Assembly: GCA_007376395.1 (NCBI GenBank)
Contig: VMGE01000004.1
Location: 6,431 to 70,430 of the forward strand
Length of the DNA: 64,000 bases
Direction of reading: 5' to 3'
Source: Microgenomates group bacterium Gr01-1014_5
GTDB taxonomy: Bacteria > Patescibacteriota > Microgenomatia > UBA8517 > UBA10165
A program made the position numbers and the translations under genes. Under the pieces are notes generated by a model that saw only the letters and a list, made by a program, of their open reading frames with translations, did no database searches and was not told the DNA's origin. This document shows positions 6,834 through 63,593 of the stretch, piece by piece (the stretch's first letter is position 1; every line of letters begins with the position of its first letter).

Positions 6834-6865
6834 TTTAGAGTTTAGATATTAGATATTAGAATTTT
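6834..6865 (+). repeat. tandem heptamer leader (TTTAGAG/TTTAGAT/ATTAGAT/ATTAGAA) abutting the tsf start codon
   Basis: Read directly: 7-nt periodic TTAGA units ending at the ATG. Confidence 0.6.
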
Positions 6866-7318
6866 ATGAAAATAAGTATCACTCAAATTAAAAAATTACG
6901 CTCCGAAACCGGTGCCGGAATTAATGATATTAAAAGTGCCCTTGAAGAGGCTAAAGGGGATGAGACAAAAGCAAAAGAGCAATTGCGGAAAAAAGGCTTT
7001 GAAAAAGCTGATAAAAAGGCTTCCCGCGAAATAAAAGCAGGCAGAGTTTTTTCATACGTTCATCACTCGGGAACAGTAGGGGCAATGATTACCTTGGGGT
7101 GCGAGACAGATTTTGTGGCTAAAACCGATGAGTTTCAACTGTTGGGACGCGAGTTGGCAATGCAGGCGGCCTCAATGAAGCCGGAAAACAAAGAAGAATT
7201 CTTAAAACAAGACTATATCCGTGATCCGCAAAAAACAATCGAGACTTTAATTAAGGAAGTTATAGCCAAAACCGGCGAAAACTGCCAGCTTCTTGACTTC
7301 AAACGCTTCGAGGTTTAA
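6866..7318 (+). CDS. tsf: elongation factor Ts (short form)
   Basis: N-terminal UBA-like ITQIKKLRSETGAGINDIKSALEEAKGD. Follows rpsB. Confidence 0.9.
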   Translation: MKISITQIKKLRSETGAGINDIKSALEEAKGDETKAKEQLRKKGFEKADKKASREIKAGRVFSYVHHSGTVGAMITLGCETDFVAKTDEFQLLGRELAMQAASMKPENKEEFLKQDYIRDPQKTIETLIKEVIAKTGENCQLLDFKRFEV

Positions 7319-7353
7319 TTTCACTTGACAGGCGTGTTATAGTAATAATTAAC

Positions 7354-7599
7354 ATGGGTTTATTTGAACGGTTTAGGAGAAAAGAAGAACCGGTAATGCA
7401 GTTTGTTAGGGTCCTGGAAGCATCTGGAGCGCCTGAGTTGTTACAGCTAAAGTCTGAAGAGATAAGCGGAAGAACTCACACAGGAACATCCGGTCAGTGG
7501 CTTGCGTGGCAAGAGTTAAGTTGGGATAAACAGCATTCAAGCGAGAGAGCTAAAAGACTTCGTGTAGAGGCAAGTGCCTATAATCTTTTGTATGGATGA
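7354..7599 (+). CDS. doubtful small ORF in the tsf-frr spacer, where pyrH normally sits
   Basis: 81 codons with no recognisable family. Overlaps the start of frr. Confidence 0.2.
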   Translation: MGLFERFRRKEEPVMQFVRVLEASGAPELLQLKSEEISGRTHTGTSGQWLAWQELSWDKQHSSERAKRLRVEASAYNLLYG

Positions 7600-8146
7600 A
7601 AATCAGATAAAACAGAGGATGCAGCAGGTCTTGGATTTGGTGCGCCAAGATATTGGCACTATAAGAACCGGTCGGGCGACTCCTTCTTTGGTAGAAGATA
7701 TTATGGTTGACGCCTATGGAGGAACTTCGAAACTGCGTATTCTGGAACTAGCTTCAATTTCCGCTCCTGATCCGCAAACCCTAATTATCAGCCCTTGGGA
7801 TAAGCAGGTCGTTGGCGAAATCCGCAAGGGGATTGAGGCGGCAAATACTGGATTAAGCCCGGTTATCTCAGGCGAAATTATCCGTATTAATTTACCGCCA
7901 ATGACGACTGAAGACCGAGAAAAATATGTCAAACTATTACATCAGAAACTCGAGAATGGACGAGTAATGGTGCGCCAGACGCGGCAAGATGCAAACCACG
8001 AAATAAAAAAGGCATTTGAAGATAAAAAGTCTTCCGAAGATGAAAAAGACAGGCGGGAAAAGCAGGTGCAGACGTTAACCGATCAGTTTATTGGTCAGAT
8101 TGAGACTTTAGGTATCACTAAAGAGAACGAACTTAGACGTATATAA
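7592..8146 (+). CDS. frr: ribosome recycling factor
   Basis: RTGRATPSLVEDIMVDAYG...NLPPMTTEDREKYVK is typical of RRF. The start is probably MDENQ at 7592 rather than the upstream ATG at 7574. Confidence 0.9.
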   Translation: MDENQIKQRMQQVLDLVRQDIGTIRTGRATPSLVEDIMVDAYGGTSKLRILELASISAPDPQTLIISPWDKQVVGEIRKGIEAANTGLSPVISGEIIRINLPPMTTEDREKYVKLLHQKLENGRVMVRQTRQDANHEIKKAFEDKKSSEDEKDRREKQVQTLTDQFIGQIETLGITKENELRRI

Positions 8147-8242
8147 ATTTCTAATTGACCTAATTTACCTAATTGATCTAAACATTAGGACGTTAGAGTT
8201 TATTTAGAAATTAGAGTAATTAGTAATTAGAATAATTTTTTT
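8147..8242 (+). repeat. TAATT/TTAGA-rich periodic leader (CTAATTGAC/CTAATTTAC/CTAATTGAT, then TTAGAGT...TAGTAAT TAGAATA) abutting the rseP ATG
   Basis: Read directly. Contains CTAATTGACCTAATT, the reverse complement of AATTAGGTCAATTAG seen at 54.79 kb and 63.55 kb. Confidence 0.55.
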
Positions 8243-9925: not shown

Positions 9926-9928
9926 AAG

Positions 9929-16604: not shown

Positions 16605-16713
16605 CTTCTTGAAGAAATCCCGATGTGCAAACGTAATCCACACCTGGTGTGGAATAGCTTTGCACCTGCGTACCCTTGCCTCTAGAAATATATCGCGTTA
16701 TACTGAGAGCCAA

Positions 16714-17274
16714 ATGGCTGATCAGCCCCAAGAACCAACAATTGTCCAACCCAGCCCGCCAGTAGCTATTCCTACAGCTCCAGCAGAAGACTGTATTTTT
16801 TGTAAAATAGTCCGTGGCGAGGCACCTGTACATAAAATTTGGGAAGATAGCGAACACATGGCTTTCTTAAGCATATTTCCCAACACACCAGGATTTACTG
16901 TGGTAATTACCAAAGTTCACCACCCAAGCTATGCTTTTGCCAACTCTGACGAAATATTGACTAAATTGACGCTTGCCGCAAAGAAAGTAGGAGAGCTTTT
17001 GGATTTGGCTTTTGAAGACGTGGGCCGTACCGGATTAATGTATGAAGGGTTTGGGGTTAATCATTTGCACGCTAAGTTGTTTCCTATGCATGGAACCGGC
17101 AATATGGAAACCTGGGAACCAATCAAAAGCCCGTTGAAAACGTTTTTTGACCAATATCCCGGATTCATGTCTTCGCACGACGCTGACAAGGCAGACGATG
17201 CCCAGCTTGAGGCACAAGCTTCCAAAATCCGCAACAAAGCAAAACAGGTTGCAGAACTGGGCGGGAAGATTTAA
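16714..17274 (+). CDS. HIT-family hydrolase
   Basis: DCIFCKIVRGEAPVHKIWEDSEHMAFLSIFPNTPGF.VVITKVHH followed by a NHLHAKLFPMHG His cluster. Confidence 0.65.
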   Translation: MADQPQEPTIVQPSPPVAIPTAPAEDCIFCKIVRGEAPVHKIWEDSEHMAFLSIFPNTPGFTVVITKVHHPSYAFANSDEILTKLTLAAKKVGELLDLAFEDVGRTGLMYEGFGVNHLHAKLFPMHGTGNMETWEPIKSPLKTFFDQYPGFMSSHDADKADDAQLEAQASKIRNKAKQVAELGGKI

Positions 17275-17341
17275 CTAGAGACTAGAGACTGGAGACTAGA
17301 GACTGGAGACTAGAGACTGGAGACTGGAGATTAGAGGCTAG
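17275..17341 (+). repeat. about 9.5 tandem copies of the heptamer CTAGAGA/CTGGAGA, running from the stop codon of one gene to the ATG of the next
   Basis: Read directly: CTAGAGACTAGAGACTGGAGACTAGAGACTGGAGACTAGAGACTGGAGACTGGAGATTAGAGGCTAG. Confidence 0.85.
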
Positions 17342-17788
17342 ATGTTGAAAGATGAACTGTCAAAGCAAATTATAGAATCCCTTAAATCCGGGAATTCAGT
17401 GCGTGTTTCAACCTTAAGACTTCTGGCAAGCGCGCTTCACAACGAAGAAATAGCCAAACAAGCACAACTCTCTAACGACGACGAAGTGGTGATTATCAAA
17501 AGACAATTAAAGCAAAGAGAAGAAGCCGTAGAGGCTTATGAAAAAGCAGGAAGAACCGAATCGGCAGAAAAAGAAAGGTCAGAGGGAGAAATCCTGAAAG
17601 AATTCCTGCCAGAACAGATAGGAGAAAATGAATTGAGCGATATAGTTAATAAAGCGATTGAGGAAAGTAGCGCACACTCAATGAGCGATTTTGGAAAGGT
17701 AATGAGTGCGGTTATGGCTAAAGTTAAAGGACAAGCAGATGGGAAGCTTACCTCAGAGCTAGTTAGAGCAAAACTATCGGGTGGTTAA
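17342..17788 (+). CDS. yqeY: GatB/YqeY-domain protein
   Basis: Typical YqeY N-terminus (LKSGNSVRVSTLRLLASAL) and length. Confidence 0.7.
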   Translation: MLKDELSKQIIESLKSGNSVRVSTLRLLASALHNEEIAKQAQLSNDDEVVIIKRQLKQREEAVEAYEKAGRTESAEKERSEGEILKEFLPEQIGENELSDIVNKAIEESSAHSMSDFGKVMSAVMAKVKGQADGKLTSELVRAKLSGG

Positions 17789-17808: not shown

Positions 17809-17837
17809 GGCCTCATAAGGTCTCACCTTGCGAAGCT
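17809..17837 (+). repeat. degenerate copy of the AGCTTCGCAAGG-TCTCT-CCTTGCGAAGCT palindromic element
   Basis: GGCCTCATAAGGTCTCACCTTGCGAAGCT. Right arm intact, left arm decayed. Confidence 0.45.
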
Positions 17838-17863
17838 AAGATACAAACATATAATCTTATAAG

Positions 17864-18261: not shown

Positions 18262-19803
18262 ATGTCATCGACTTATTACTTGAAGTATCGTCCGCAAAGA
18301 ATTTCTGAACTTGATCTTGAAAGTGTCCGTGGTCAGCTGCAAAAGATTGTTTCTTCCGGGCGCATGCCGCACGCGTTTTTGTTTCCCGGTCCCCGCGGCG
18401 CAGGTAAAACTTCAACCGCCAGGATTTTAGCGAAAGTGCTCAACTGTGAGCACTTAGAACAAAGTTACGAACCCTGTAACGAGTGCTCTCAGTGCAAGGA
18501 AATAACACGCGGCGCAAGTTTGGATGTGGTCGAAATAGACGCCGCTTCAAACCGCGGAGTTGACGACATCCGCTCTCTTCGCGAAACAGTCAAGCTTGCC
18601 CCAATCGGAGCAAAGAAAAAGGTTTATATCATTGACGAAGCTCACATGTTAACTACTGAAGCGGCAAATGCTTTATTGAAAACTCTTGAAGAGCCGCCCT
18701 CCCACGCAGTTTTTATTTTAGCGACAACTGCGCCTGAGAAACTTTTAGATACTATCCGTTCCAGGTGTACGACTATTTCTTTCTATAAAGGGAAAGAAGC
18801 AGAAATTATCCGGGCGCTTAAAAAGGTTGTAGAGGGTGAAAAGTTAGAGATTAACGAGGAGGCTTTGACTGAAATTGCCCGCGGGGTTGACGGTAGTTTT
18901 CGCGAAGCTCATAAGATTCTTGAGCAATTGTCATTCACAAAAGGCGCGATTACACAGGAAGCTGTGCGCGGGCTTACACAAGAGAATTTTGCCGACCCCG
19001 CGACTTTACTCGCGCTTCTTGCCAAAAAAGAAACCAAAGCCGCGCTTTCCGAGGTTGATGATTTGGTCAATAAAGGGATAAACCTTAAAACTTATTTAAC
19101 AGGCGCCATGGCAGTATTGCGTAAATCTCTTTTAACAAAAATGGGGGCAATAGAAGACGTGGTTATCGAAGGTTTGGAAGTTCGAGATCACCAAGTTTTG
19201 ATTGAGTATCTTACGGACGCGGCACGGCTTTATCCGACTGCTCTTATTCCGCAACTGCCTTTGGAGATTGCGGTGGTGAAGTGGTGTGTGGGAGGTAAAG
19301 AGAAGTTAGAAGTTAGAAGCGAGAAGCTAGAGGAAGAAGTGGGAAGTGGGAAAGAAAAAAAAGAGGTATCAGAAATATCCCACGTCTCACCTCGAAACGA
19401 AGTGATTCCCACGTCCCAAGTCACACCTCTCATGTCCAAACTCAGCCCATCTGAGTTGGACAATCTCTGGCCGCAGATTATGAAACTTACAAAGGAAAAG
19501 AATCATTCCGTGGAAGCCTTGTTGCGCGCGGCGCGCCCGACTGCGTTTGACGGAAAGTTTTTACAAATCGAAGTTTTTTATAAATTTCATAAGGAACGTT
19601 TAGAAAAAGAGCCTTACAGAACTTTAGTCGAAGAGGTTGCCGCCAGTCTCTTGGGAGGACCTTTAAGACTGACCTGTGTTTTAACAGAAGGACAAAAACG
19701 GGCGGCAGATGTGCGGAATGTGACAACCCCCGAAGACGAAGAATTGGCAAAACTCGCAGAAGATATTTTCAACACTGCGTCCGGCAACGGTAAGATTCAT
19801 TAA
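18262..19803 (+). CDS. dnaX: DNA polymerase III subunit gamma/tau
   Basis: YRPQRISELDLESVRGQL...FPGPRGAGKTSTARILAKVLNCE, zinc module C..C..C..C, IIDEAHMLT. Confidence 0.9.
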   Translation: MSSTYYLKYRPQRISELDLESVRGQLQKIVSSGRMPHAFLFPGPRGAGKTSTARILAKVLNCEHLEQSYEPCNECSQCKEITRGASLDVVEIDAASNRGVDDIRSLRETVKLAPIGAKKKVYIIDEAHMLTTEAANALLKTLEEPPSHAVFILATTAPEKLLDTIRSRCTTISFYKGKEAEIIRALKKVVEGEKLEINEEALTEIARGVDGSFREAHKILEQLSFTKGAITQEAVRGLTQENFADPATLLALLAKKETKAALSEVDDLVNKGINLKTYLTGAMAVLRKSLLTKMGAIEDVVIEGLEVRDHQVLIEYLTDAARLYPTALIPQLPLEIAVVKWCVGGKEKLEVRSEKLEEEVGSGKEKKEVSEISHVSPRNEVIPTSQVTPLMSKLSPSELDNLWPQIMKLTKEKNHSVEALLRAARPTAFDGKFLQIEVFYKFHKERLEKEPYRTLVEEVAASLLGGPLRLTCVLTEGQKRAADVRNVTTPEDEELAKLAEDIFNTASGNGKIH

Positions 19804-19826
19804 AAATTGTAAATTGAAAATTAAAA

Positions 19827-19849
19827 ATTCCCAAATTATGTTATAATTT
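19827..19849 (+). promoter_or_regulatory. perfect 10-bp inverted repeat containing TATAAT (CCCAAATTATgttATAATTTGGG)
   Basis: Read directly. Lies between dnaX and the ybaB-like ORF. Confidence 0.4.
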
Positions 19850-20404: not shown

Positions 20405-21028
20405 ATGCGCATTCCCCAAGCCATAAAGCGTTTAATTGAAGCCTTCGAGAAACTTCCCGGCATAGGTCCAAAAACGGCACAGCGTTTAACTTTTTATCTT
20501 CTGCATGTTCCCCAAGGACAATTGGAAGGTTTTGCCGAAGCTTTAGCGAGCCTTAAGAAAAATACAGTTCTTTGTTCTGTCTGTAAAAATGTGGGTGAGA
20601 CAGACCCGTGTTCAGTATGTGCCAACTCTGCGCGGGATCACAGTACGATTATGGTTGTTGAACAGCCGTTAGACCTATTGGCTCTTGAGCGGACAGGTAA
20701 ATATCATGGTGTTTATCATGTTTTGCATGGCGCGATTAATCCAATGGATAATATCGGCCCTGATGAGATATTTATCGGGAAGTTAATTGAGAGAACTAGA
20801 GAATTAAGTGAATCAACCCCAAATATCGAAATAATCCTTGCTACCAATCCAACAATGGAAGGCGAGGCCACAGCAATGTATATAAAAAAACAGCTTCAAG
20901 AACTGGAAAATGGACATTGGAAATTGGAAATTTCCCGTCTGGGCGTTGGGTTGCCGACCGGAGCGGATTTAGAATACGCAGACGAAACAACACTAATGCG
21001 GTCAATAGAAGGACGAAGAATTTTTTAA
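20405..21028 (+). CDS. recR: recombination protein RecR
   Basis: HhH IGPKTAQRLTFYLL. C4 zinc finger CSVC...CSVC. Toprim region. Confidence 0.9.
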   Translation: MRIPQAIKRLIEAFEKLPGIGPKTAQRLTFYLLHVPQGQLEGFAEALASLKKNTVLCSVCKNVGETDPCSVCANSARDHSTIMVVEQPLDLLALERTGKYHGVYHVLHGAINPMDNIGPDEIFIGKLIERTRELSESTPNIEIILATNPTMEGEATAMYIKKQLQELENGHWKLEISRLGVGLPTGADLEYADETTLMRSIEGRRIF

Positions 21029-21031: not shown

Positions 21032-21484
21032 ATGCAACCGACTGCCAAAAAACCTAAAGATAAAAAAAGAATATACACACAAAATCCTTTCGAGGAACCT
21101 CTAAAGATTTTAGAAGAGGCAGGAAAACAACTTTCTGGAGATTATTCTCCTGCGAACCAGCAAGAACAGCAAACAGAAAATACATCAGCGGTAGATCATG
21201 CTGCAATTAAAAAACGCGAACAGAGACATTATCAGACTTTCCAAAACGAACTAATCGAAATTAGAAACATTCAAAAAGAGAGAGAACAAGAGCGTCAACA
21301 ATTGAGGGTGCAGGAAGAACGGCAAAAACAGATGCAAGAAGAACAGAAAAAGAAAAAAGAACAAGAAGGGCTAATTGAACCAATTACCCGCAAGGCAAGA
21401 GGAATGCTCGGGGGTGCAGGGGCAATGCTGGGGGTTAAAAGAAAACAGCGAAGCACAGAATTGGTAAAAACGCCGAGCAACTAG
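21032..21484 (+). CDS. hypothetical Lys/Glu/Gln-rich coiled-coil protein
   Basis: Low-complexity ORF. Its stop codon TAG is the first unit of the downstream heptamer repeat. Confidence 0.35.
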   Translation: MQPTAKKPKDKKRIYTQNPFEEPLKILEEAGKQLSGDYSPANQQEQQTENTSAVDHAAIKKREQRHYQTFQNELIEIRNIQKEREQERQQLRVQEERQKQMQEEQKKKKEQEGLIEPITRKARGMLGGAGAMLGVKRKQRSTELVKTPSN

Positions 21485-21514
21485 AGACTAGAGATTGGAG
21501 GTTAGAGGCTAGAC
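21481..21514 (+). repeat. tandem heptamers CTAGAGA CTAGAGA TTGGAGG TTAGAGG CTAGAC abutting the ATG at 21515
   Basis: Read directly. Confidence 0.8.
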
Positions 21515-21874: not shown

Positions 21875-21944
21875 AACAAGTTCTGAGTAATCCAGCCTCC
21901 AGTCTCTAGTAGTCTAATCTCATCTGTTGTACAATTAGCTTCAG

Positions 21945-23989: not shown

Positions 23990-24625
23990 ATGCAAGAGTT
24001 CTTTTGGAAGCACGACGCCTCAATAAAGTCTGTTTTTGTAGTTATTCTTCTTGTCTTAGTGATGTGGATTGTTAGTTTGCAAAGCCAGCTGACCTTTGTT
24101 CCTGCAACACCTCCCGAAGTAATTACAAATGACGTTTGCGGGGAAGATTGCAAGAAGACGATACAAGAAATTGTTACAGAGTCAGTCTCGTCGATTTCTG
24201 CCTCGCCGAAAATTGTTTATGCAATTCCAAAACAAACCGGTAATCAGCAAAAAGTAACTTATAACCAGCAGGTTACATATATTCCAATTCCCGGAGGGTT
24301 TTCAACCCGTTTAACAGAATGGTCGGACGTGGCGCGATCCGAGGTTTATATCGATCTTGCGGAGTATTCCAGCGAGCCATATATTGACTGGGAAGCAACG
24401 GTAAGAGCAGTGAGCGGCAATATACAGGTACGTTTGTTTGACGTGACACACACGATCGCTGTGGGGGAAAGCGAAATAAAAAGTGTCTCCAGTACCTTTA
24501 CCACTATTTCTTCTGGAAACATAAGTTTGTGGAGAGGTAAAAATTTGTACCGAGTACAGGTAAAATCATTGGACGGATCCGAAGTTTTCTTCGATTCAGG
24601 GAGAATAAAAATAGTTTCAAAATAG
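23990..24625 (+). CDS. membrane-anchored hypothetical protein
   Basis: Single N-terminal TM helix. No motifs. Confidence 0.4.
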   Translation: MQEFFWKHDASIKSVFVVILLVLVMWIVSLQSQLTFVPATPPEVITNDVCGEDCKKTIQEIVTESVSSISASPKIVYAIPKQTGNQQKVTYNQQVTYIPIPGGFSTRLTEWSDVARSEVYIDLAEYSSEPYIDWEATVRAVSGNIQVRLFDVTHTIAVGESEIKSVSSTFTTISSGNISLWRGKNLYRVQVKSLDGSEVFFDSGRIKIVSK

Positions 24626-24680
24626 TAAGCAGTGGTCAGTAACCAGTAGTCAGTGAGTTAGTAGTGAATAGAGTGATTAG
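24626..24680 (+). repeat. heptamer-periodic leader (CAGTGGT CAGTAAC CAGTAGT CAGTGAG TTAGTAG TGAATAG AGTGATT AG) abutting the ATG
   Basis: Read directly. Confidence 0.75.
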
Positions 24681-25040: not shown

Positions 25041-25099
25041 CTGTTTACTTTATTTACTGATTGTTTACTGTTAACTGAATACTGGATACTTTAATACAT
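25041..25099 (+). repeat. TACTG-periodic leader (..TTAACTG AATACTG GATACTT TAATACA) abutting the ATG
   Basis: Read directly. Confidence 0.6.
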
Positions 25100-25753
25100 A
25101 TGAAATACAGTGCTGTTCTTTTTGACCTTGATGGGACAATTTTAGATAACGAGGATGTTTACGGCAAGGCTTTTGCCGCTGTTTTTAATAAACATAAAAT
25201 TCCGCCTCTTGATAGCGAATACCCGCACACTCCGGGAATCGGCATGGAGGCTAACTGGAAAGCTCTAAAAGAAAAATACGATGAGTTACGCGATGTTTCG
25301 GTTGTACAGCTGGTGCATGAAACCCAAGGAGAGTATCACGACAGAATTAGAGACGTGGTTATCCGTCCCGGATTTTTTGAATTCCACCAAGCATTAATTG
25401 ACAAAGAGGTTGTTGTGGCTCTGGCGACCTCAAACGACTGGTGGCTGGTCGAGGACGAATTGGACGACCTGGATTTACACCGGTATTTTGAAACAATTAC
25501 AACAGGTGAAGAGGTCTATGAACGCAAACCTGCGCCCGATATTTTTATTCTTACTGCCCGCAAAATTCACGCCGAACCGGAAGATTGCATTGTTATCGAG
25601 GATTCGCGAGCAGGAGTTAAAGCCGGAAAAGAAGCAGGAATGAAAGTTGTGGTAATCCGCAATTCACACAACACACAAGAAGATTTTTCAAATGCAGATT
25701 TAGTCGTTGAAGGTTTTTACGACCTTAACCCGCAGGTTCTTGAAAATCTTTAA
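25100..25753 (+). CDS. HAD-superfamily hydrolase (beta-phosphoglucomutase-like)
   Basis: Motif I FDLDGTILD. Motif IV region IEDSRAGVKAGKEAGM. Confidence 0.8.
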   Translation: MKYSAVLFDLDGTILDNEDVYGKAFAAVFNKHKIPPLDSEYPHTPGIGMEANWKALKEKYDELRDVSVVQLVHETQGEYHDRIRDVVIRPGFFEFHQALIDKEVVVALATSNDWWLVEDELDDLDLHRYFETITTGEEVYERKPAPDIFILTARKIHAEPEDCIVIEDSRAGVKAGKEAGMKVVVIRNSHNTQEDFSNADLVVEGFYDLNPQVLENL

Positions 25754-37130: not shown

Positions 37131-37153
37131 ATTTAAGGCGTCCCCTTAAACAG
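37131..37153 (+). repeat. 21-bp hairpin TTTAAGG-CGTCC-CCTTAAAC, right copy, 4 nt after the stop codon
   Basis: 20/21 identity to 35211-35233. Confidence 0.7.
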
Positions 37154-39555: not shown

Positions 39556-39572
39556 TATCTCTACCTTTCTAA

Positions 39573-40507: not shown

Positions 40508-40560
40508 GGTTTGTAAATTGATATGTAGAGAAAGTTGCAAACGTAGCATATAATTCCTAC

Positions 40561-44760: not shown

Positions 44761-45069
44761 ATGAGTCTAAAAGTTGGGATAGTAGGTTTGCCAAATGTTG
44801 GGAAAAGCACGTTGTTTAACGCACTCTTAAAAAAACAACAGGCATATGTTGCGAATTTTCCGTTTGCTACCATTGAGCCGAATGTCGGTATTGTTCCGGT
44901 TCCTGACGCAAGGCTGGATGAATTGGCGCGAGTTGTCATGGCCTCTGAAAACATGGGAAGCGTACCACCTAAAGTTCCCGCAACCGTAGAGTTTGTTGAT
45001 ATCGCAGGCCTAATTGCCGGCGCACACAAAGGCGAAGGTTTGGGTAATAAATTTTTAACTCTAAATTAA
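44761..45069 (+). pseudogene. ychF: 5' fragment of a divergent ychF copy (encodes residues 1-98)
   Basis: [23 protein letters not shown]...[14 protein letters not shown] is about 80-85% nucleotide-identical to the start of full-length ychF at 47862. Similarity ends near 45055, followed by TLN*. Confidence 0.75.
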
Positions 45070-47861: not shown

Positions 47862-48866
47862 ATGTCATTAAAAGTAGGAATAGTCGGTTTGCCAAATGTA
47901 GGGAAAAGCACATTGTTTAACGCTCTTCTAAAAAGGCAACAGGCATATGTTGCGAATTTTCCGTTTGCTACCATTGAGCCGAATGTAGGCATTGTTCCGG
48001 TTCCAGACAGTCGGCTCGACAAGCTCGCCGAGGTGATTAGTGATTCTTGGATAGTGAATGGTGAGAAGAAAAAACCACCCATTGTCCCCGCAACTGTAGA
48101 ATTTGTAGATATCGCAGGGTTAATTGCCGGAGCTTCCAAGGGCGAAGGGCTGGGGAATAAGTTCTTATCCCATATCCGCGAAGTTGACGCAATTTGCCAT
48201 GTTATCCGGCATTTCAAAGATAAAAATATTATTCAAACAGGAACTAATCCCAAAGAGGACTTTGAGATTGTCAAAACCGAATTAGATTTGGCAGACTATG
48301 AAATGGAAGAACAGCACAAAGAAAGAAATAAAGGAAAGGTTGACGAAAACCTACCCCTCTTTAAGAAGAAACCGATTTTAGTTGTGCTTAACGTTGACGA
48401 AGAGGATTTAATAAACGCAAAGAATATCGAGGCTGGGTTTGCGACTTCTGTGGGGCTTAATAAAGAGCAGGTGATTGCAATTTGTGCTAAAACTGAAGCG
48501 GAATTGGCGGATCTTTCAGAAGACGAACAAAAGGAATATTTAAGTGACTTGCGAATTGACAAACCGGGTTTGGAAAGGCTGGCGCAAAGCGCTTTTACCA
48601 CCCTTGGTTTAATTACGTTTTTAACCGCAGGAGAAAAGGAAGTGCGGGCTTGGACCATTCGGCGAGGTGCGACGGCTCTAGAGGCTTCCGGGGAAATCCA
48701 CACCGACTTTATGGCTAAGTTTATTAAAGCGGAAGTTGTGAAGTATGAGGATTTTGTAAATTCAGGAGGATGGAAGAAATCCCGCGATGTCGGTAAAGCC
48801 AGACTTGAAGGCAGAGATTATATCGTCCAAGACGGTGATGTGGTTGAATTTAAGATTGGCGCTTAG
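47862..48866 (+). CDS. ychF: ribosome-binding ATPase YchF (Obg-family GTPase)
   Basis: G1 [16 protein letters not shown]-terminal TGS domain (KARLEGRDYIVQDGDVVEF). Confidence 0.9.
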   Translation: MSLKVGIVGLPNVGKSTLFNALLKRQQAYVANFPFATIEPNVGIVPVPDSRLDKLAEVISDSWIVNGEKKKPPIVPATVEFVDIAGLIAGASKGEGLGNKFLSHIREVDAICHVIRHFKDKNIIQTGTNPKEDFEIVKTELDLADYEMEEQHKERNKGKVDENLPLFKKKPILVVLNVDEEDLINAKNIEAGFATSVGLNKEQVIAICAKTEAELADLSEDEQKEYLSDLRIDKPGLERLAQSAFTTLGLITFLTAGEKEVRAWTIRRGATALEASGEIHTDFMAKFIKAEVVKYEDFVNSGGWKKSRDVGKARLEGRDYIVQDGDVVEFKIGA

Positions 48867-52109: not shown

Positions 52110-52170
52110 GATTTACCAGATATTACCAAATATATCCTAATATTACCAGATGTTACCCAAAATTCCGATT

Positions 52171-52629: not shown

Positions 52630-53132
52630 TGGCGTCACGTTCTTTAAACAAAGTAATACTCATTGGTAATTTAACCCGGGATCCGGAATTGCGCTACACT
52701 CCTCAAGGAACCGCTGTTTGTACTTTCGGCCTTGCTACAAACCGTTCTTGGAAAACTGAAGATGGAACACAAAGGGAACAAACCGAATTCCACACAATTG
52801 TTACCTGGACCAGGCTTGCAGAAATTGTAGCTGAGTATTTAACCAAAGGTAAGCAGGCATACGTTGAAGGTCGTCTTTCAACCCGCGAGTGGGAAGGTCA
52901 AGATGGACAAAAAAGGCGCACGACAGAAATTATAGCCACAGAAGTTATTTTCTTAGGGTCACCGGGCGCGCGACCTGAGTCAATAGACGTTCCAGAGGAC
53001 TTGGGGATTAACGAGCAAAAGCCAGAAACAGAAACAGAGCCAGATACAGAGAAAGGGACAAAAGAAAAACCCGCAACTAAAACCAAAACTGAAGAAACAC
53101 CAGTTGTTGAAGGGGAAGATATTCCTTTCTAG
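52629..53132 (+). CDS. ssb: single-stranded DNA-binding protein
   Basis: LNKVILIGNLTRDPELRYTPQG OB fold. C-terminal acidic DIPF. Confidence 0.9.
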   Translation: MASRSLNKVILIGNLTRDPELRYTPQGTAVCTFGLATNRSWKTEDGTQREQTEFHTIVTWTRLAEIVAEYLTKGKQAYVEGRLSTREWEGQDGQKRRTTEIIATEVIFLGSPGARPESIDVPEDLGINEQKPETETEPDTEKGTKEKPATKTKTEETPVVEGEDIPF

Positions 53133-53203
53133 AGGCTAGAGAGCTGGAGGCTAGAGGTTAGATTCTAGCCTCTAATCTCTAATTATCTAGTAATCTAATT
53201 TTT
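53133..53203 (+). repeat. CTAGAGA/CTGGAGG heptamer-related repeat plus 8-bp-stem hairpin (AGGCTAGA..TCTAGCCT) and TAATCT repeats abutting the rpsR ATG
   Basis: Read directly. Confidence 0.7.
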
Positions 53204-53467: not shown

Positions 53468-53533
53468 TGCGTTAAAATAACTCTTGCTGATGTTCTTGTT
53501 ACTTTTTACTTATTACTCATAACTCTACTCTTT

Positions 53534-54751
53534 ATGAAGCTGACACTTCCCAAAATCCGGCTCTACACAATAATTCTCATTTTAATCGTTGTCTCTTTCG
53601 GCGGCGGTGTTTGGCTTGGGAAAAGGGATGTTTCTCTCCAAGCCGAAGGGCTAAAGTCTAAAATTACGATTAGCCGCAATATTCCCGAGCGGCACGCAGA
53701 TGTAGATTTCAATCTTTTCTGGGAAGTTTGGGATCGGCTTGAAGGTTCATACTTTGACAAGTCAAAAGTCGACAAAGCTAAAATGGTTTATGGCGCAATT
53801 TCAGGCATGGTTTCAGCAGTAGGTGATCCCTACACTGTTTTCCTTCCCCCTGAAGAACAAAAGAGAACGAAAGAGGACTTGGGAGGGGAGTTTGAAGGCG
53901 TCGGAATTCAGATAGGTTTCAAAGGCACCCAGCTTGCAGTCATTGCGCCTCTTGAGGGTACTCCAGCTTTTAAGGCGGATGTTAAGGCGGGAGATTATAT
54001 TGTTGGAATAAAGGATAAAAATAAAAATCTGGAACTAGGGACAGTTGGAGTTTCCTTGCCCGACGCTGTTAACGCGATCCGCGGGCCTGCAGGAACGGCT
54101 GTGGCCTTAATTTTAACCCGTGAAGGGGTAGACAAGCCGTTTGAGGTAGAAATTGTCCGCGAAAAAATTGACGTACCTTCAGTAATTCTGACAAAAGAAG
54201 GAGAGATAAGTCACCTAAAATTACTCAAATTTGGTGATCAAACTGATGGTGAATGGGATAAGGCAATAGCTAACATTAAAAAGCAAAATCCCAAAGGCTT
54301 GATTCTTGACCTGCGGAATAATCCCGGGGGATATCTCAACGGAGCGGTTACTGTGGCTGGAGAATTTATCACGCGGGGCAACGCTGTTTTACGCGAAGAC
54401 AGTAAAGGAACCCGAACCGGTATCGCGGTTAACGGTAAAGGTCAATTAATAAATACTCCATTGGTAGTGTTGGTGAATAAAGGAAGTGCTTCAGCGTCAG
54501 AAATTGTCGCGGGTGCTCTTAAAGATTACGGAAGAGCAAAGATTGTTGGTACTAAGACGTTTGGAAAGGGAACAATACAAGAATCTATTGATTTAGGGGA
54601 AGCTGGCATACACATCACTACCGAGCGCTGGCTGACACCAAACGGAACATGGGTAAATACAGTTGGACTCACGCCTGACGTGGAAGTTGAAGATGATGTC
54701 AAAACAGAGGAAGATGAACAAGTCGAAGCCGCGTTGCAGCTTCTTAAATGA
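53534..54751 (+). CDS. ctpA: carboxyl-terminal processing protease (S41)
   Basis: TM anchor. PDZ. LVVLVNKGSASASEIVAGALKDYGRAKIVGTKTFGKGTIQ. Confidence 0.85.
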   Translation: MKLTLPKIRLYTIILILIVVSFGGGVWLGKRDVSLQAEGLKSKITISRNIPERHADVDFNLFWEVWDRLEGSYFDKSKVDKAKMVYGAISGMVSAVGDPYTVFLPPEEQKRTKEDLGGEFEGVGIQIGFKGTQLAVIAPLEGTPAFKADVKAGDYIVGIKDKNKNLELGTVGVSLPDAVNAIRGPAGTAVALILTREGVDKPFEVEIVREKIDVPSVILTKEGEISHLKLLKFGDQTDGEWDKAIANIKKQNPKGLILDLRNNPGGYLNGAVTVAGEFITRGNAVLREDSKGTRTGIAVNGKGQLINTPLVVLVNKGSASASEIVAGALKDYGRAKIVGTKTFGKGTIQESIDLGEAGIHITTERWLTPNGTWVNTVGLTPDVEVEDDVKTEEDEQVEAALQLLK

Positions 54752-54821
54752 CAAATTATTCTAATTTCTAATTGCTCTAAAAGTTTAGAAATTAGGTCAA
54801 TTAGGTTAATTAAAAATCATT
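54752..54821 (+). repeat. TAATT/TTAGG periodic leader (..TTAGAAATTAGGTCAATTAGGTTAATTAAAA..) abutting the htrA ATG
   Basis: Read directly. Shares AATTAGGTCAATTAGGTTAATTA with 63.55 kb. Confidence 0.7.
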
Positions 54822-55970
54822 ATGCTTATAAAAAAATACCTGCTTCAAACGGCCATAATATTTGTAATCCTGGTTGCAGCTTTGGGAGGAGCTGTCTCTG
54901 ATCGTCTTTTTGGTCTTCGCCCTTTAGATTATATTTTCCCCAGGTCTGCCACCTCTGATACAGGATTTCAAGCCATAACCGAGCGTCAGGTGATCAAAGA
55001 GGAATCTCTCGTTATAGAAGCGATCAAGAAAGCTTCACCTGCCGTGGTAACAATTTCAGTCCAGACTCCGAAGAGGAAGGTTTTACAATTCAATCCGTTT
55101 GGCGGTTTGGACGTACGCGAGCAAGGAGGCGGACAGCAGGACTTGGCAACGGGATTTATCGTCTCTGCTGACGGACTTTTGGTTACCAATAAACACGTAG
55201 TGTCCAACTCAGAATATAAATATATTGTTATTGATAAAGACGGAAAGGAATACGAAGTCAAGAATATTTACCGCGACCCGGCCAACGACCTGGCACTTTT
55301 GAAGATTGAGGCTACGGGTTTACCTATAGTTGAACTTGGCGATTCTGAAAATTTGCAGGTAGGGCAGACTGTCGTGGCTATCGGTACGCCTTTGGGCGAA
55401 TTCCGCCAATCTGCGACATCCGGCATTATCTCGGGTTTGGGGAGGGGAATTGATACAGGTAATCCGTTTGAAGGATATGTAGAGCGGCTGGATAACATTA
55501 TCCAAACTGATGCCGCTATTAACCCCGGCAACTCGGGTGGGCCGCTTTTGGATAGCGGCGCGCGCGTAATCGGGATTAATGTTGCAGTAGCCGCGGGGGC
55601 GCAAAACATTGGGTTTGCAATTCCGATTAATGTTGTCAAAACTTCAATCGAACAATTCCGTCAAACTGGTGAATTTGCCAGGCCATTCTTAGGAGTACAG
55701 TACCAAATCATTTCAAAGGAGGCGGCTCTGGCAAATGATTTGCCGCAAGGAGCTTACGTGCGGGGTGTGGTTGACGGTTCGCCGGCAGCGCTTGCTGGAA
55801 TTAAAACAGAGGATGTAATTACAAAATTCGGTGGGGAAAAGATTGATGCTGAAAAAGGAGGACTTGCACAATTAGTAAATAAACACAAAGCAGGAGATGT
55901 TGTCCAGGTAGAACTATGGCGTAATGGCAAAACTCAAACTCTCCAAATCATCCTCCAAGAAGCAAAATAG
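54822..55970 (+). CDS. htrA: HtrA/DegP-family serine protease with PDZ domain
   Basis: Catalytic H (TNKHVV), D and GNSGGPLL. C-terminal PDZ. Confidence 0.85.
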   Translation: MLIKKYLLQTAIIFVILVAALGGAVSDRLFGLRPLDYIFPRSATSDTGFQAITERQVIKEESLVIEAIKKASPAVVTISVQTPKRKVLQFNPFGGLDVREQGGGQQDLATGFIVSADGLLVTNKHVVSNSEYKYIVIDKDGKEYEVKNIYRDPANDLALLKIEATGLPIVELGDSENLQVGQTVVAIGTPLGEFRQSATSGIISGLGRGIDTGNPFEGYVERLDNIIQTDAAINPGNSGGPLLDSGARVIGINVAVAAGAQNIGFAIPINVVKTSIEQFRQTGEFARPFLGVQYQIISKEAALANDLPQGAYVRGVVDGSPAALAGIKTEDVITKFGGEKIDAEKGGLAQLVNKHKAGDVVQVELWRNGKTQTLQIILQEAK

Positions 55971-55984
55971 GCTATAATCCTCAC

Positions 55985-57272: not shown

Positions 57273-57599
57273 CTACTTACTCCCCACTACCGTTTTACGT
57301 ACTTCTTCTAGCGAGGTTGGCCGTGACATTTCTTCCTCGACCTTTTCTTTTCGTTTTGCCGCCCTGCGCTCTTTTTTGGAAAGACCTTCTAATTTATATG
57401 CATTCTCTTGTTTTGCTTTAAATTTATCTACTCGTCCTGCTGTATCTACAAAACGCATTTGCCCTGTGTAGAAAGGGTGACAGGCAGAACAAACCTCGAC
57501 ATGAATATTTTCCATGGTCGAGCCTGTGATAAAGGTGTTGCCGCAGGTGCAAACGACTTTTGCCGCGGGAAACCACGCTGGATGAATTTGTGCTTTCAT
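57273..57599 (-). CDS. rpmE: 50S ribosomal protein L31 with Lys/Glu-rich C-terminal extension
   Basis: [10 protein letters not shown]...[30 protein letters not shown]...[10 protein letters not shown]. Confidence 0.85.
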
Positions 57600-57640
57600 A
57601 ATTAGAAACTGGAGACTAGATACTAGAGGCTAGGTCCAGT
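57600..57640 (+). repeat. AGACTAG-type heptamers (AAACTGG AGACTAG ATACTAG AGGCTAG) abutting the rpmE start on the opposite strand
   Basis: Read directly. Same unit family as 17275-17341. Confidence 0.7.
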
Positions 57641-57704
57641 AATTTATTATACCCTAAATTTAGTTTAGCTTCAAGACCGTTATTTAATGTCTAGCCTCAA
57701 AACT

Positions 57705-60804: not shown

Positions 60805-60809
60805 ATTTT

Positions 60810-60870
60810 AGCTTCGTAAGGTCTCTCCCCTTCGAGGCTCAGGGTCTACGACTTGCGAAGCTAGTTTTTG
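60810..60870 (+). terminator. composite palindromic element: the AGCTTCGyAAGG...CTTGCGAAGCT hairpin interrupted by CCCTTCGAGGCTCAGGG, followed by a T-run
   Basis: Read directly. Combines both GC-rich element families. Confidence 0.6.
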
Positions 60871-60910
60871 TGTTAAATCGAAAAAGCTAATAGCTATAAT
60901 AAACGCAACT

Positions 60911-61606: not shown

Positions 61607-62351
61607 GTGAAGGTTTGGCTGAGGCTTTTGGGCTTGGAGAAGGGCTTACGGTTGGGCGTGGCGTACCTTTAGAACCGGGAATTACTTGGACTAAAGTAGC
61701 AACAAGCGTTTTGTCTTTCTTTGCGTTCAGTGTTCCAACGGCTACAATTCTATCTCCTTCTTCAATCTCTTTAGCCTCAATTTTTCCGTCCAGCCTTTTA
61801 ACAATTTCAGTTTTAACTGACGTTTCAACTGTCCAGACCTCTGCCGTTTTAAGATGCTTAATGGTCAAAACACCTTTTTTATTTGTCTCAACCTTGCCGT
61901 AGACTACTTGCTTTTGCAAGAAAGGGGTTTCGTCAAAAGCTAAAACACGTTGGGCGCCTAAAATATCGTCTCCGTTTTTATATCCCAAGGCGGCAATAAA
62001 ATCACCGATAGCCAAGTCAACAAACTTAACTTCCGCCTGTTTACCTTTTATGGTTTTAATGTATTTAGTATCTTTGTTTGTGGCAACCAAGACGAACTTT
62101 CCATCATCGGTTTTTATAGCGGAGCTGGTTTTTATCTTTAGTGTTGAGTCTGTAACACTATCCAGAGTGCCGATTACAGCTTTTGGTTTTTTAATCAGAT
62201 TTTCTATAGTTTTGCGGACTTTGTCGCGTACCGCATCAGTTCCAGAAGGGGAAGACTCGTCTTGGGCAGAAACGGTTGGAATTAGGAATAAAGAAGCAAG
62301 AATTAAGGAAAAAGACACGAGCGAAACCTTAATTCGTAATTCGTAATTCAT
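61578..62351 (-). CDS. secreted hypothetical protein with C-terminal Pro/Ser/Lys-rich tail
   Basis: Signal peptide. C-terminal TPRPTVSPSPSPKASAKPSPKPSP. Confidence 0.4.
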   Translation of the reverse strand: MNYELRIKVSLVSFSLILASLFLIPTVSAQDESSPSGTDAVRDKVRKTIENLIKKPKAVIGTLDSVTDSTLKIKTSSAIKTDDGKFVLVATNKDTKYIKTIKGKQAEVKFVDLAIGDFIAALGYKNGDDILGAQRVLAFDETPFLQKQVVYGKVETNKKGVLTIKHLKTAEVWTVETSVKTEIVKRLDGKIEAKEIEEGDRIVAVGTLNAKKDKTLVATLVQVIPGSKGTPRPTVSPSPSPKASAKPSPKPSPTSQP

Positions 62352-62779
62352 TATTCTGTTTCTCCCAATTCTGTTGTATAAACTACCACCAGTCTTTTTT
62401 GAGACTCGCTGCCGGAATCGTCAAAGCTAATAACTTTAATTTCATTCAGACCTACTTTAAGCTCAATTTCCTTTTCAAAACTTCCGTCTGCATCTGCCTC
62501 TAGGATGTACTCATCTATCCCTGTGGTAACAACGACCGTTGCCCGAGGGGTAGCAGCGCCTTTTATGAGTGTTGTGTCTTTTGTAACGACTAAATTATTT
62601 TCAGGTTGGGTAATTACGAGTTCGGAAAAATTATCAGGTTCCGGAGAAGCAAGCGGCGCCTCAGTTTGCAGAGCTCCAAGTTTCGGAGCAAGGGCTAAAT
62701 TTGCACGCCAAATCCCAAAGGCAACAGCAAGCCCTAACCCGACCCCAAGGATTATTGCAACAAGAACTTCCTTGCGCAT
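62351..62779 (-). CDS. membrane-anchored hypothetical protein
   Basis: N-terminal TM helix. Abuts the downstream gene, so a likely operon. Confidence 0.4.
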   Translation of the reverse strand: MRKEVLVAIILGVGLGLAVAFGIWRANLALAPKLGALQTEAPLASPEPDNFSELVITQPENNLVVTKDTTLIKGAATPRATVVVTTGIDEYILEADADGSFEKEIELKVGLNEIKVISFDDSGSESQKRLVVVYTTELGETE

Positions 62780-62847
62780 TCTTGTGCAATATAACTTATG
62801 ACTGATATCTTGTCAACCAAGTTGGCAAGTGATATATTGCAAATTAC

Positions 62848-63516
62848 ATGGAAATTCAATATCTCGGTCATTCCTCATTCCGCATAAAAGGTAAAACAGT
62901 AACCATTGTTACTGATCCTTACGATTCCGAAAAAGTAGGTTTTAAGTTTCCCAAACTTGAGGCAACAATTGTCACTATCTCACACGACCACTTTGATCAT
63001 AACCAAGCGCAATTGGTCGACCCTTCGGCAGGCTCAGGGCAAGCTCCGAAAGTTGTTTCAGGCCCGGGAGAGTATGAAATTGCCGGTGTTTCCATCTTTG
63101 GCACACATACTTATCACGACAACAAGAATGGGGAAGAAAGAGGTTCAAATACGGTCTATACAATAACTATTGACGGGGTTAACATTTGCCACTTGGGCGA
63201 TTTAGGACACAAGTTATCAGACGAACAGCTTGATTCGATAGGGAACGTTGACGTGTTGCTTGTTCCGGTTGGCGGGGTTGATACTATTGATCCATCAGAA
63301 GCAAGTCAGGTGATATCACAAATTGAACCAAAAATAATTATCCCCATGCACTACAAAGTACCAGGGTTGGCGATTTCTAAAAGAGATGATATGTCAGACG
63401 TCGAGGCATTTGTTAAGGAGATTGGCATAGAGCCAGTCAGAGACAATAAATTCGTAATTACTCCCGACAAAATGCTGGAAGAAGTACAGCTTGTCGTCTT
63501 GGAAAGACGATCTTAA
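62848..63516 (+). CDS. MBL-fold metal-dependent hydrolase (UPF0173-like) carrying an in-frame GC-rich element
   Basis: SHDHFDH metal motif. Segment 63005-63050 is homologous to the intergenic GC-rich element at 9327. Confidence 0.7.
   Translation: MEIQYLGHSSFRIKGKTVTIVTDPYDSEKVGFKFPKLEATIVTISHDHFDHNQAQLVDPSAGSGQAPKVVSGPGEYEIAGVSIFGTHTYHDNKNGEERGSNTVYTITIDGVNICHLGDLGHKLSDEQLDSIGNVDVLLVPVGGVDTIDPSEASQVISQIEPKIIIPMHYKVPGLAISKRDDMSDVEAFVKEIGIEPVRDNKFVITPDKMLEEVQLVVLERRS
63005..63050 (+). repeat. GC-rich element GTCGACCCTTCGGCAGGCTCAGGGCAAGCTCCG inside the MBL hydrolase ORF (in frame, encodes VDPSAGSGQAPK)
   Basis: About 24/31 identity to GTTGACCCTTCGACTTCGCTCAGGGCTTGAC at 9327-9357. Confidence 0.6.
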
Positions 63517-63593
63517 ATTTCTAATTTCTAATTACTCTAATTTCTAAAATTTAGGTCAATTAAAATAATTAGGTTAATTAGGTCAATTTGCAT
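63517..63593 (+). repeat. CTAATTT heptamer repeats plus AATTAGGTCAATTA motifs abutting the dnaB ATG
   Basis: CTAATTT CTAATTT CTAATTA CTCTAATTTCTAAAATTTAGGTCAATTAAAATAATTAGGTTAATTAGGTCAATTT. Confidence 0.7.

Follow-up and report, generated by a model that had tools for sequence, protein, structure and literature searches.

Inverted heptanucleotide arrays as putative intervening-sequence-like hairpin elements in the intercistronic spacers of a Microgenomates genome

The 64,000-nt stretch of contig VMGE01000004.1 (positions 6,431 to 70,430; hereafter the window) from Microgenomates group bacterium Gr01-1014_5 raises the question of what the tandem arrays of 7-nt units are that stand directly in front of many of its start codons, where Shine-Dalgarno (SD) sequences are absent. 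The initial annotation regarded them as leaders of translation. The reading favored here, with a modest degree of confidence, is that they are heptamer arrays of the kind described as short tandemly repeated repetitive sequences (STRR) or long simple sequence repeats (LSSR), which form hairpin elements resembling ribosomal intervening sequences (IVS) in intercistronic RNA and probably serve as RNase III or decay-barrier structures. We are reasonably sure of the identity and architecture of these elements, and their action on RNA, proposed by analogy, is put forward tentatively. The organism is a Patescibacteria (Candidate Phyla Radiation, CPR) bacterium with a compact genome: its CysS shares 58-60% identity with those of Woesebacteria and other Microgenomates metagenome-assembled genomes, and the gene content and gene density of the window are as in a CPR/Patescibacteria genome. 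The subject is of wider interest: heptanucleotides are, for no reason known to us, the most frequent long simple repeats of prokaryotic genomes, and about 30 years after the description of the IVS we know of no function for the PF05635 proteins, to which the present results tie these repeats.

The periodicity of the arrays is readily apparent. Tandem Repeats Finder (TRF) gives period 7 at or beside every array position listed in the initial annotation. In the 48 pooled spacers, the lag-7 match is 0.320, compared with 0.278 +/- 0.007 in 500 dinucleotide shuffles (z = 6.2; none of the shuffles is as high), which bears out the suggestion of a periodicity above background. Within the range of lags 2-21 only lag 7 stands out, accompanied by weak harmonics at 14 and 21, and the coding DNA of the window has no peak at lag 7. 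Segments of 35 nt with at least 75% lag identity number 76 at lag 7 and 0-8 at the other lags between 4 and 12. Arrays are present in the spacer before the ATG of about 14 genes; they adjoin the start codons, and several begin at the stop codon of the upstream gene, both as described previously. The recurring sub-motif that had been noted, AATTAGGTCAATTAG, is found 9 times at up to 2 mismatches, compared with 0.23 expected. The units near 8150, 54790 and 63551 are indeed periodic, but TRF assigns them 9-nt units (CTAATTGAC / AATTAGGTC) interspersed with 7-nt ones. For the NNNACTG units reported at 25041-25099, TRF scores 25042-25072 as period 11, and the lag-7 scan recovers 25062-25090 only. 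Head-to-tail 7-nt units are therefore present beyond chance, as in heptanucleotide LSSRs and STRRs, and they are confined to non-coding DNA with three exceptions inside or at the ends of open reading frames (ORFs): 19295-19336 (3' part of dnaX), 20898-20935 (3' part of recR) and 62322-62362 (junction of two minus-strand genes), the last of which is accompanied by an inverted partner (62279-62308). Between a Fic-domain gene and the divergently oriented rpsF lies a period-10 array (TTACCAAATA x 4.5, 52113-52157), the sole strong tandem array in a divergent spacer of the window and not heptameric.

Most of the arrays are paired in inverted orientation, a feature absent from the initial annotation. 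Six spacers each fold into one long bulged hairpin whose arms are oppositely oriented arrays, with z-scores from -2.7 to -3.7 relative to dinucleotide shuffles (Table 1). The hairpin in the rpsB 5' region folds with -23.3 kcal/mol (z = -3.2) and lies downstream of a promoter-like site at 5808-5837; that of the rpsB-tsf spacer contains a 39-nt inverted repeat of 74% complementarity (z = -3.7), and that of the ssb-rpsR spacer folds with -31.6 kcal/mol (z = -3.5). Between co-directional genes, the hairpins begin no more than about 3 nt from the upstream stop codon, which two of them overlap, and end 3-13 nt ahead of the next ATG. Because one hairpin fills a short spacer, its arrays seem to start at the stop codon and to precede the ATG; the arrays at the stop and those at the start are two faces of a single spacer-filling structure, and the "leader" appearance is largely that of compact spacers filled by hairpin elements. 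This accounts for repeats that appear "in front of" genes in compact genomes.

The distribution among spacers leads to the same picture. Arrays passing the strict threshold are located in 9 of 33 co-directional spacers and in none of the 15 divergent or convergent ones (Fisher p = 0.023); the co-directional count rises to 14 of 33 when period-9 and weaker arms are included. No heptamer array is found in the 12 divergent spacers, which comprise 24 gene starts. Since divergent spacers are pure upstream regions, the preference for sites upstream of start codons does not hold in the form in which it had been stated: arrays are limited to spacers with a stop at one end and a start at the other. Neither an Rfam nor a tRNA scan of the window finds anything, and promoter and terminator scans give no convincing signal at the arrays. 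The GC-rich stem and U-tract of an intrinsic terminator are not observed, and no array hairpin is among the terminator-like sites.

Table 1. Arrays, hairpins, PF05635 (IVP) cassettes and related features. Positions refer to the window unless a contig is named.
Feature	Position	Strand	Characteristics
Hairpin, rpsB 5' region	5928-6007	+	TAAGTAA-type and CTTGTTA-type arms; TRF 5926-5958, 5978-6007
Hairpin filling rpsB-tsf spacer	6755-6859	+	CTAAATN / NTTTAGA arms; TRF 6755-6773, 6834-6866
Hairpin filling frr-rseP spacer	8149-8232	+	Family B (CTAATTGAC / TTAGNAATTAG); fold z = -2.7
One-armed array, HIT-family gene / yqeY	17275-17341	+	CTAGAGA/CTGGAGA x 9.5; TRF score 96; length-polymorphic
One-armed AAATTGN array, dnaX-ybaB spacer	19804-19847	+	TRF 19799-19829; lag scan
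IVP1 5' arm	21482-21514	+	ACTAGAG / TTGGAGG heptamers, ends at ATG; TRF 21480-21513
IVP1 gene, 119 aa	21515-21874	+	Pfam PF05635 E = 5e-34; TIGR02436; PDB 2GSC E = 9e-17
IVP1 3' arm (CCAGCCTCCAGTCTCTAG), upstream of cysS	21891-21916	+	Inverted repeats; folds
IVP2 5' arm	24615-24680	+	CAGTNNN heptamers; TRF 24630-24665
IVP2 gene, 119 aa	24681-25040	+	Pfam PF05635 E = 3e-11; TIGR02436
IVP2 3' arm, upstream of HAD hydrolase gene	25041-25105	+	NNNACTG, including TAACTGA; lag scan, folds
Gene-less family A hairpin filling ssb-rpsR spacer	53129-53190	+	CTAGAGG / CCTCTAG
One-armed CTTNTTA array, rpsR / S41 peptidase gene	53491-53527	+	TRF 53495-53517; lag scan
Family B hairpin filling S41 peptidase-htrA spacer	54754-54811	+	TTCTAAT / AATTAGGTC; fold z = -3.7
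Family A element upstream of rpmE	57600-57698	-	TRF 57603-57633
Family B hairpin filling spacer before dnaB	63514-63590	+	Fold z = -3.0; alignment; motif counts
TRF period-7 arrays	17274-17342; 21480-21513; 53129-53162; 57603-57633		First array: ACTAGAG, 9.9 copies, 85% matches
Further TRF period-7 arrays	6834-6866; 24630-24665; 54759-54773; 63516-63547		
Leaderless-type starts, examples	39548-39572; 40535-40560; 60885-60910; 55960-55984		
IVP cassette parts, contigs L167 and L168	L167 2887-3000, 3373-3412; L168 1467-1551, 1924-1965		

Two of the array-bracketed units contain a gene. By their profile matches, the genes named here IVP1 and IVP2 encode PF05635 / TIGR02436 "23S rRNA intervening-sequence" four-helix-bundle proteins related to PDB 2GSC, and both IVP genes of the window are bracketed by inverted arrays. 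The minimum free energy structure of the IVP1 cassette pairs 21482-21506 with 21891-21916 through 23 long-range pairs, with ACTAGAG-type units in the 5' arm and CTCTAGT-type units in the 3' arm; the reverse-complement copy previously noticed ahead of cysS is confirmed (21891-21910 relative to 21480-21506, 85% complementary). In the IVP2 cassette, 24615-24680 pairs with 25041-25105 through 47 long-range pairs. A third IVP gene (L172 14880-15320) follows efp 11 kb past the window end and has CNGGTTN / AACCNGN arms. Public gene calls are misled by the arrays: a GTG within the 5' array is taken as the start of this third gene, which is annotated with 146 aa, and rpmE is annotated with a truncated 80 aa. 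Arrays of this kind thus tend to be absorbed into ORF calls, a point of relevance for annotation.

The remaining units carry no gene, and the alignments indicate that hairpins with and without an IVP gene share sequence families. Once the ORF of the IVP1 cassette is taken out, both of its arms can be aligned with those of the gene-less hairpin 53129-53190. The yqeY array shares 91% identity with the IVP1 5' arm over its last 34 nt, and GAGGCTAGA occurs 6 times, compared with 0.35 expected. The element ahead of rpmE has a 5' arm that likewise terminates in GAGGCTAGAC(A)T, and its GAGGCTAGACAT is identical to the end of the IVP1 arm. Read on the mRNA strand, the rpmE element consists of GAGGCTAGAC, a 64-nt loop with a promoter-like TTGAAG-17-TATAAT, and then CTAGCCTCTAGTATCTAGTCTCCAG; in the loop of this element (examined as 57600-57704), no remnant of an IVP ORF was found beyond the arm ends. 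The start of rpmE itself (57273-57599, minus strand) at 57599 is confirmed by the L31 N-terminus MKAQIHP. Family B (CTAATT / AATTAG) is represented by three copies that can be aligned. The copy that is inverted with respect to the direction of the genes is the hairpin at 8149-8232, whose reverse complement aligns with 54745-54830 and 63505-63600. Gene-containing and gene-less versions are thus both present in operons of a single CPR genome.

The elements also appear to be dynamic. In the related Microgenomates contigs L167 and L168, the IVP protein is 65-67% identical to IVP1, compared with 67-68% for RecR and 51% for CysS, and from these values the IVP protein appears to be under purifying selection. 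Its cassette is located on the other side of the neighboring gene than in the window and consists of a complete hairpin ahead of the gene and an extra 3' arm behind it (5' arm, 3' arm, gene, 3' arm). The unit is an octamer (GACTGGAG / ATCTAGTT), present in 7 copies in L167 and 4 in L168. These differences imply that the elements are dynamic and that their period is not strictly 7. The three-armed arrangement permits two alternative pairings. In L168 the dnaX-ybaB spacer is 2 nt only, and the array found there in the window is absent.

The same dynamics is evident within the population. Sibling contigs were obtained from three assemblies, ERZ27284378, ERZ27284376 and SRR8863434, all of one population, and their differences from the window over approximately 60 kb comprise one SNP (44680), one 1-nt indel (19954, adjoining a contig end) and one 14-nt deletion. 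The last, in sibling L001, removes exactly 2 units within the 17275-17341 array, with the remaining 5.6 kb identical. The longest array is the most mutable site seen, as slippage predicts, and the view of the arrays as slippage-prone repeats with whole-unit length polymorphism, as known for LSSRs and STRRs, is in agreement with this indel. The shorter arrays exhibit no copy-number change in 2-3 sibling assemblies; only the longest varied. Four short segments are absent from the window and present in the otherwise 100% identical siblings L082, L084 and L171 (172 nt after 7578, 131 nt after 11790, 69 nt after 31352 and 69 nt after 33655). All four are intragenic and lie in coding DNA, where they break or shorten the genes at the junction of a 133-aa gene with frr, one minus-strand gene, yfhO and purN. 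Either one strain has truly lost these segments, or their absence arose in the assembly of the window. No array is touched by them, and several ORF calls are affected.

Beyond the window, the association between IVP genes and arrays was examined at 80 metagenome loci (L087-L166) chosen solely by IVP protein motifs, 68 of which have at least 100 nt on both sides. Inverted complementarity of the IVP flanks is observed at 52 of these 68 loci, compared with 5 for the direct-orientation control and 0 for shuffles. A lag-7 array is present in at least one flank at 47 of the 68 (17 of 905 control segments), other periods are represented by arrays at 3-6 of the 68 only, and the other spacers of the same loci contain arrays in 5 of 43 cases. 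Where both flanks have arrays, the upstream and downstream units are reverse complements of each other, with one mismatch allowed, at 24 of 31 loci; units taken from different loci match at this level in 3.7% of pairs, and the units vary between loci, as does the GC content (about 30% to 70%). Approximately three quarters of the IVP genes, sampled from unrelated metagenomes, therefore lie between complementary arms, and most such loci have a heptamer array on one or both sides; stems of this kind thus enclose PF05635 genes in many phyla. Of 40 loci tested, a single one falls within an rRNA gene, namely L124, a true IVS with heptamer arms. The 5' flank is G-rich at 60 of the 68 loci and the 3' flank C-rich at 50, which gives the hairpins a consistent handedness; this is not explained by G-U pairing, as sense and antisense energies are equal.

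Independent loci show a comparable arrangement. A jackhmmer search for further IVP genes in 80 CysS loci finds one, L007, with inverted TAGTGAG / CTCACTA arrays. Among cultured cyanobacteria, a four-helix-bundle gene of Nostoc punctiforme pNPUN01 is accompanied by AGGAGTC...ATG and TGA-CTCCTGA, identical units recur on Trichormus variabilis plasmid C, and Anabaena sp. 90 has ACAGGTG and CACCTGT arms. Exceptions are Calothrix PCC 7716, which has no arrays, and Pseudanabaena, whose arrays are direct rather than inverted. On the Pseudanabaena galeata plasmid pPg_01 (L180), the four-helix-bundle gene lies between cas6 and cas4 with long direct (AAAGCTA)n and (AAAGCCA)n flanks; on pANA02 of Anabaena sp. 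90 (L179), it is directly upstream of cas4, and the plasmid table has no gene opposite. Lag-7 arrays dominate the tandem periodicity in many other Patescibacteria loci and are also present in Anaerolineae, Planctomycetota and Elusimicrobiota loci and in cyanobacterial plasmids, which does not support the lineage-specific architecture that had been supposed.

Comparison with known systems helps to place the elements. In Coxiella, the 28-bp terminal stem of the IVS is cut by RNase III, and tandem GACAGAT heptamers, variable in copy number between strains, stand ahead of the S23p ORF in the 5' part of the stem (PMC4990558). The window elements resemble the 23S rRNA IVSs of Coxiella, Leptospira and Xanthomonas in their terminal inverted repeats, in a stem of about 25-30 bp, in a PF05635 ORF within the loop and, with regard to Coxiella, in a 5' stem region of copy-variable tandem heptamers. 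Inverted repeats forming a long terminal stem are found in the IVP1 and IVP2 folds and in the metagenome flanks, and the S23p (PF05635) ORF, optional in IVSs, is present in the loops. The location is different: the window elements lie between protein-coding genes rather than in rRNA helices 25, 45 or 9, Rfam finds no rRNA in the window, and many copies lack an ORF. Since the rRNA location is missing, they are named IVS-like and not IVS; they are IVS-type elements that have mRNA spacers rather than rRNA as their site and exist in two forms, a long one with a gene and a short one without. Furthermore, the Coxiella ORF is decaying, whereas the IVP protein of the window looks conserved, and RNase III cutting, shown in Coxiella, is a prediction for the window elements.

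Cyanobacterial STRRs are heptamers. The window arrays share with the STRRs of heterocystous cyanobacteria and with LSSRs the non-coding tandem 7-nt units, the many families per genome and the proneness to slippage, and the Nostoc and Trichormus plasmid arrays likewise flank four-helix-bundle genes. The lineage, CPR/Microgenomates, is a different one, and the literature found describes direct tandem arrays used for fingerprinting; in the searchable STRR/LSSR literature, neither inverted-pair hairpins nor a PF05635 link is stated. For the abundance of heptanucleotide LSSRs, slippage has been proposed (Mrazek 2007, as summarized in PMC4679880). TAACTGA repeats, known in Beggiatoaceae, Cyanobacteria and Bacteroidetes, form arrays directly ahead of starts without a ribosome-binding site (RBS), for which translational regulation was proposed (MacGregor 2015, PMC4679880). 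They are similar to the window arrays in adjoining the ATG, in overlapping the site of the missing RBS, in including ribosomal-protein genes and in having every frame closed by stops. Units like (T/C)AACTGA are also found in the 3' arms of IVP2 and of several metagenome IVP genes. BOGUAY, however, has one dominant unit in one orientation and a single inverted case, whereas the window has at least 6 families, most of them arranged as inverted pairs. The closeness to the ATG is thus shared, and one dominant forward unit is not observed; in addition, no IVP link was reported by MacGregor 2015.

The repetitive extragenic palindromic (REP) elements, bacterial interspersed mosaic elements (BIME) and REPtrons of Enterobacteria and Pseudomonas offer a second comparison, as dispersed imperfect palindromes between co-directional genes with a protein gene flanked by inverted copies. 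REPs are not built of short tandem units, however, their partner protein is RAYT (a Y1 transposase) and not a four-helix bundle, and they have no sequence similarity to the window elements. The gene enclosed by inverted copies in the window is PF05635 instead of RAYT, and the Pfam tables of the window contain no transposase gene. The window elements are alike in logic, not in composition or associated protein. REP and BIME elements act at the RNA level as decay barriers.

Taking these comparisons together, the mechanism we propose is the following. Array length changes by whole units through replication slippage. Elements that sit within transcription units should fold in mRNA, and so those located within operons would be transcribed and then adopt the hairpin structure. 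The stems would be cut by RNase III, as in classical IVSs, or would block exonucleases; such processing or blocking between cistrons (rpsB/tsf, ssb/rpsR) would uncouple the fates of neighboring cistrons. In view of the cutting of the Coxiella stem and of the retention of rnc in at least 90% of CPR genomes (PMC12641178), endonucleolytic processing or exonuclease blocking is the most likely action. The results thus offer a concrete model, with RNase III substrates in mRNA spacers and possibly an element made of protein plus hairpin. A bolder extension, which we regard as rather unlikely, would unite PF05635 genes and inverted heptamer arrays in one widespread self-propagating hairpin family with autonomous and gene-less non-autonomous copies in the intercistronic spacers of many phyla; the classical 23S rRNA IVS would be the special case of an insertion into rRNA, and its arms would be represented by the cyanobacterial STRRs and the TAACTGA repeats. 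In SD-less genomes that rely on leaderless translation, as this one, RNase III cuts close to the stem base would release internal cistrons as near-leaderless mRNAs. The kind of repeat itself is already known; the inverted-array hairpins in CPR operons and the strong general association of PF05635 with arrays appear undescribed, and a literature search for a link between IVP and heptamers finds only the Coxiella IVS case.

Several observations weigh against the main interpretation. The arrays 17275-17341, 19804-19847 and 53491-53527 have no partner arm; for the first, none was found and the fold gives z = -1.1, and the last has no fold signal (z = -0.9). An ungapped search for partner arms of 111 arrays in the window and the CysS loci gives 32 compared with 21 in the control; this search is too crude for AT-rich degenerate arms, and the folding z-scores were relied on instead. 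The AT-rich stems are weak (-11 to -23 kcal/mol) with a bulge every 7 nt and may be poor RNase III substrates, and cutting by RNase III is proposed by analogy. Duplex energies favor the sense strand at 32 and the antisense strand at 36 of the 68 loci, so that structure at the RNA level and at the DNA level are not distinguished. Finally, the elements are missing at the orthologous spacers of the closest relatives (L002 and L003 have no arrays), an absence that is as compatible with selfish or neutral elements as with functional ones.

With regard to translation starts, the absence of SD sequences is confirmed, but it is a trait of the whole window rather than peculiar to the array-led genes. 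In duplexes with ACCUCCUUU, the median energy of the 73 starts examined is weaker than random; -4.5 kcal/mol is reached by 18% of these starts and by 19% of random positions. The statement that none of the array-led genes has an SD needs correction, given that SD-like GGAGG/GAGG lies inside the unit at IVP1 (-10.0 kcal/mol) and yqeY (-6.4 kcal/mol). TATAAT-like hexamers peak exactly 6 nt before the ATG, at 9 of 59 genes; -10 boxes in this position indicate leaderless mRNAs, from which many genes are probably translated (examples in Table 1). Initiation without SD is therefore a separate genome-wide trait, apart from the arrays. The window also contains ychF (47862-48866), a gene linked to leaderless translation. 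A segment of 140 nt (44768-44907) is 90.7% identical to 47869-48008 at the start of ychF; it belongs to a 102-aa ORF (44761-45069), a truncated GTPase paralogue.

Nor is the stop content of the arrays exceptional. Closure of all frames, claimed for every leader, is true for 11 of 14 array spacers. Three-frame closure is found in 42-50% of the window arrays compared with 38% of controls in which the 7 repeat-register columns are permuted, and in 24-28% of the arrays of IVP loci compared with 21% of permuted controls; it is not enriched in the window. Stop triplets are modestly denser in array spacers (0.106) than in the remaining spacers (0.068), with AT contents of 69% and 62%, respectively. 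The stop content is no higher than composition gives, which leaves little room for the suggested insulation against read-through. The idea of a common leader sequence or a single regulator encounters a similar difficulty: at least 6 unrelated unit families within 64 kb make one regulator unlikely.

The alternative explanations can be weighed on this basis. If the arrays were translation leaders, as held by the initial annotation and in line with MacGregor's TAACTGA proposal, they would replace the SD as ribosome standby, S1-loading or regulator sites for internal cistrons. Their ends 0-13 nt ahead of ATGs without an SD would be explained in this way, as would the one-armed arrays ahead of yqeY, the S41 peptidase gene and ybaB, and the TAACTGA within the IVP2 3' arm recalls the Beggiatoaceae arrays, which are mostly of one orientation and end 1 nt before RBS-less starts (PMC4679880). 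We nevertheless judge this explanation to be quite unlikely, since genes with and without arrays lack an SD alike, the unit families are too many and unrelated, and the arm adjoining the ATG is purine-rich at yqeY and IVP1 and pyrimidine-rich at rpsR, cysS and rpmE. Most arrays are, moreover, paired in the predicted fold, the opposite of an unstructured loading site, all divergent spacers are free of them, and they are not kept at the orthologous starts of relatives. Transcription signals are highly improbable. Arrays could supply -35/-10-like hexamers (TTGAC in CTAATTGAC, TAGAAT in TTAGAAT) or intrinsic terminators, and promoter-like matches do lie inside the arrays at 6834-6862 and 8205-8233, with T-runs behind several hairpins (e.g., 8233-8242). 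Such matches are, however, only slightly in excess overall (46 vs 34.8 +/- 5.9 and 53 vs 39.2 +/- 5.7 in shuffles), the -10 elements of the arrays lie 3 or 9 nt from the ATG rather than the 6 nt of leaderless genes, families A and F have no promoter-like hexamers, and the AT-rich bulged stems are not scored as terminator-like.

The matched inverted arms are what a neutral by-product of slippage cannot give. According to this idea, which follows Mrazek's view of LSSRs, 7 nt is the unit most readily expanded by prokaryotic polymerases, and functionless arrays persist where they are harmless. The 2-unit indel, the 7 and 4 units of L167 and L168 and the lack of arrays in the closest relatives are all consistent with it, as is the rank of heptanucleotide LSSRs as the most abundant class in most prokaryotic genomes, in the account given by PMC4679880. 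It is still an unlikely explanation in our view, as it leaves unexplained not only the agreement of arms at 24 of 31 loci compared with 3.7% across loci, but also the 4-6-fold enrichment at IVP genes, the dispersal of one sequence family to several spacers and the restriction to co-directional spacers. A REPtron-like system, in which the PF05635 protein would recognize its own flanking arrays in DNA or RNA and propagate or maintain the gene-less copies, would account for such dispersal: IVP genes lie between inverted arrays as RAYT genes lie between inverted REPs, gene-less hairpins of the IVP1-arm family are dispersed in the same genome, and the cassette is found on opposite sides of the neighboring gene in the window and in L167/L168. 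The protein is conserved to the same degree as RecR, with conserved polar residues such as RRA..S...N..E in the family alignment. On the other hand, no nuclease or transposase fold is known for PF05635, PDB 2GSC being a simple four-helix bundle, no target-site duplications are seen, and the 84 kb examined contain no IVP gene whose arms match family B, C or D; we therefore consider this system quite unlikely, slightly more so than translation leaders. The IVS-like hairpin remains the preferred description of the arrays.

Other dispersed hairpins are also found in the window. The family AGCTTCGCAAGG...CCTTGCGAAGCT is present in 3 spacers (17810-17840, 35165-35198 and 60808-60865) with 6 motif matches compared with 1.3 expected. 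In contrast to the heptamer hairpins it shows no periodicity, and its GC content is higher than theirs. A small palindrome, TTTAAGGCG(C/T)CCCCTTAAAC, occurs in direct orientation at 35212-35231 and 37132-37151, with none expected by chance, and this pair flanks a 618-aa gene (35272-37128) without a Pfam match. Finally, the hairpin GTGCAAAC.TAATCCACACC.GGTGTGGAATAGCTT.GCAC upstream of the HIT-family gene (16625-16665) is encountered again at L172 17768-17808, about 18 kb past the window end, where it is directly followed by an ACTACTT-type heptamer array.

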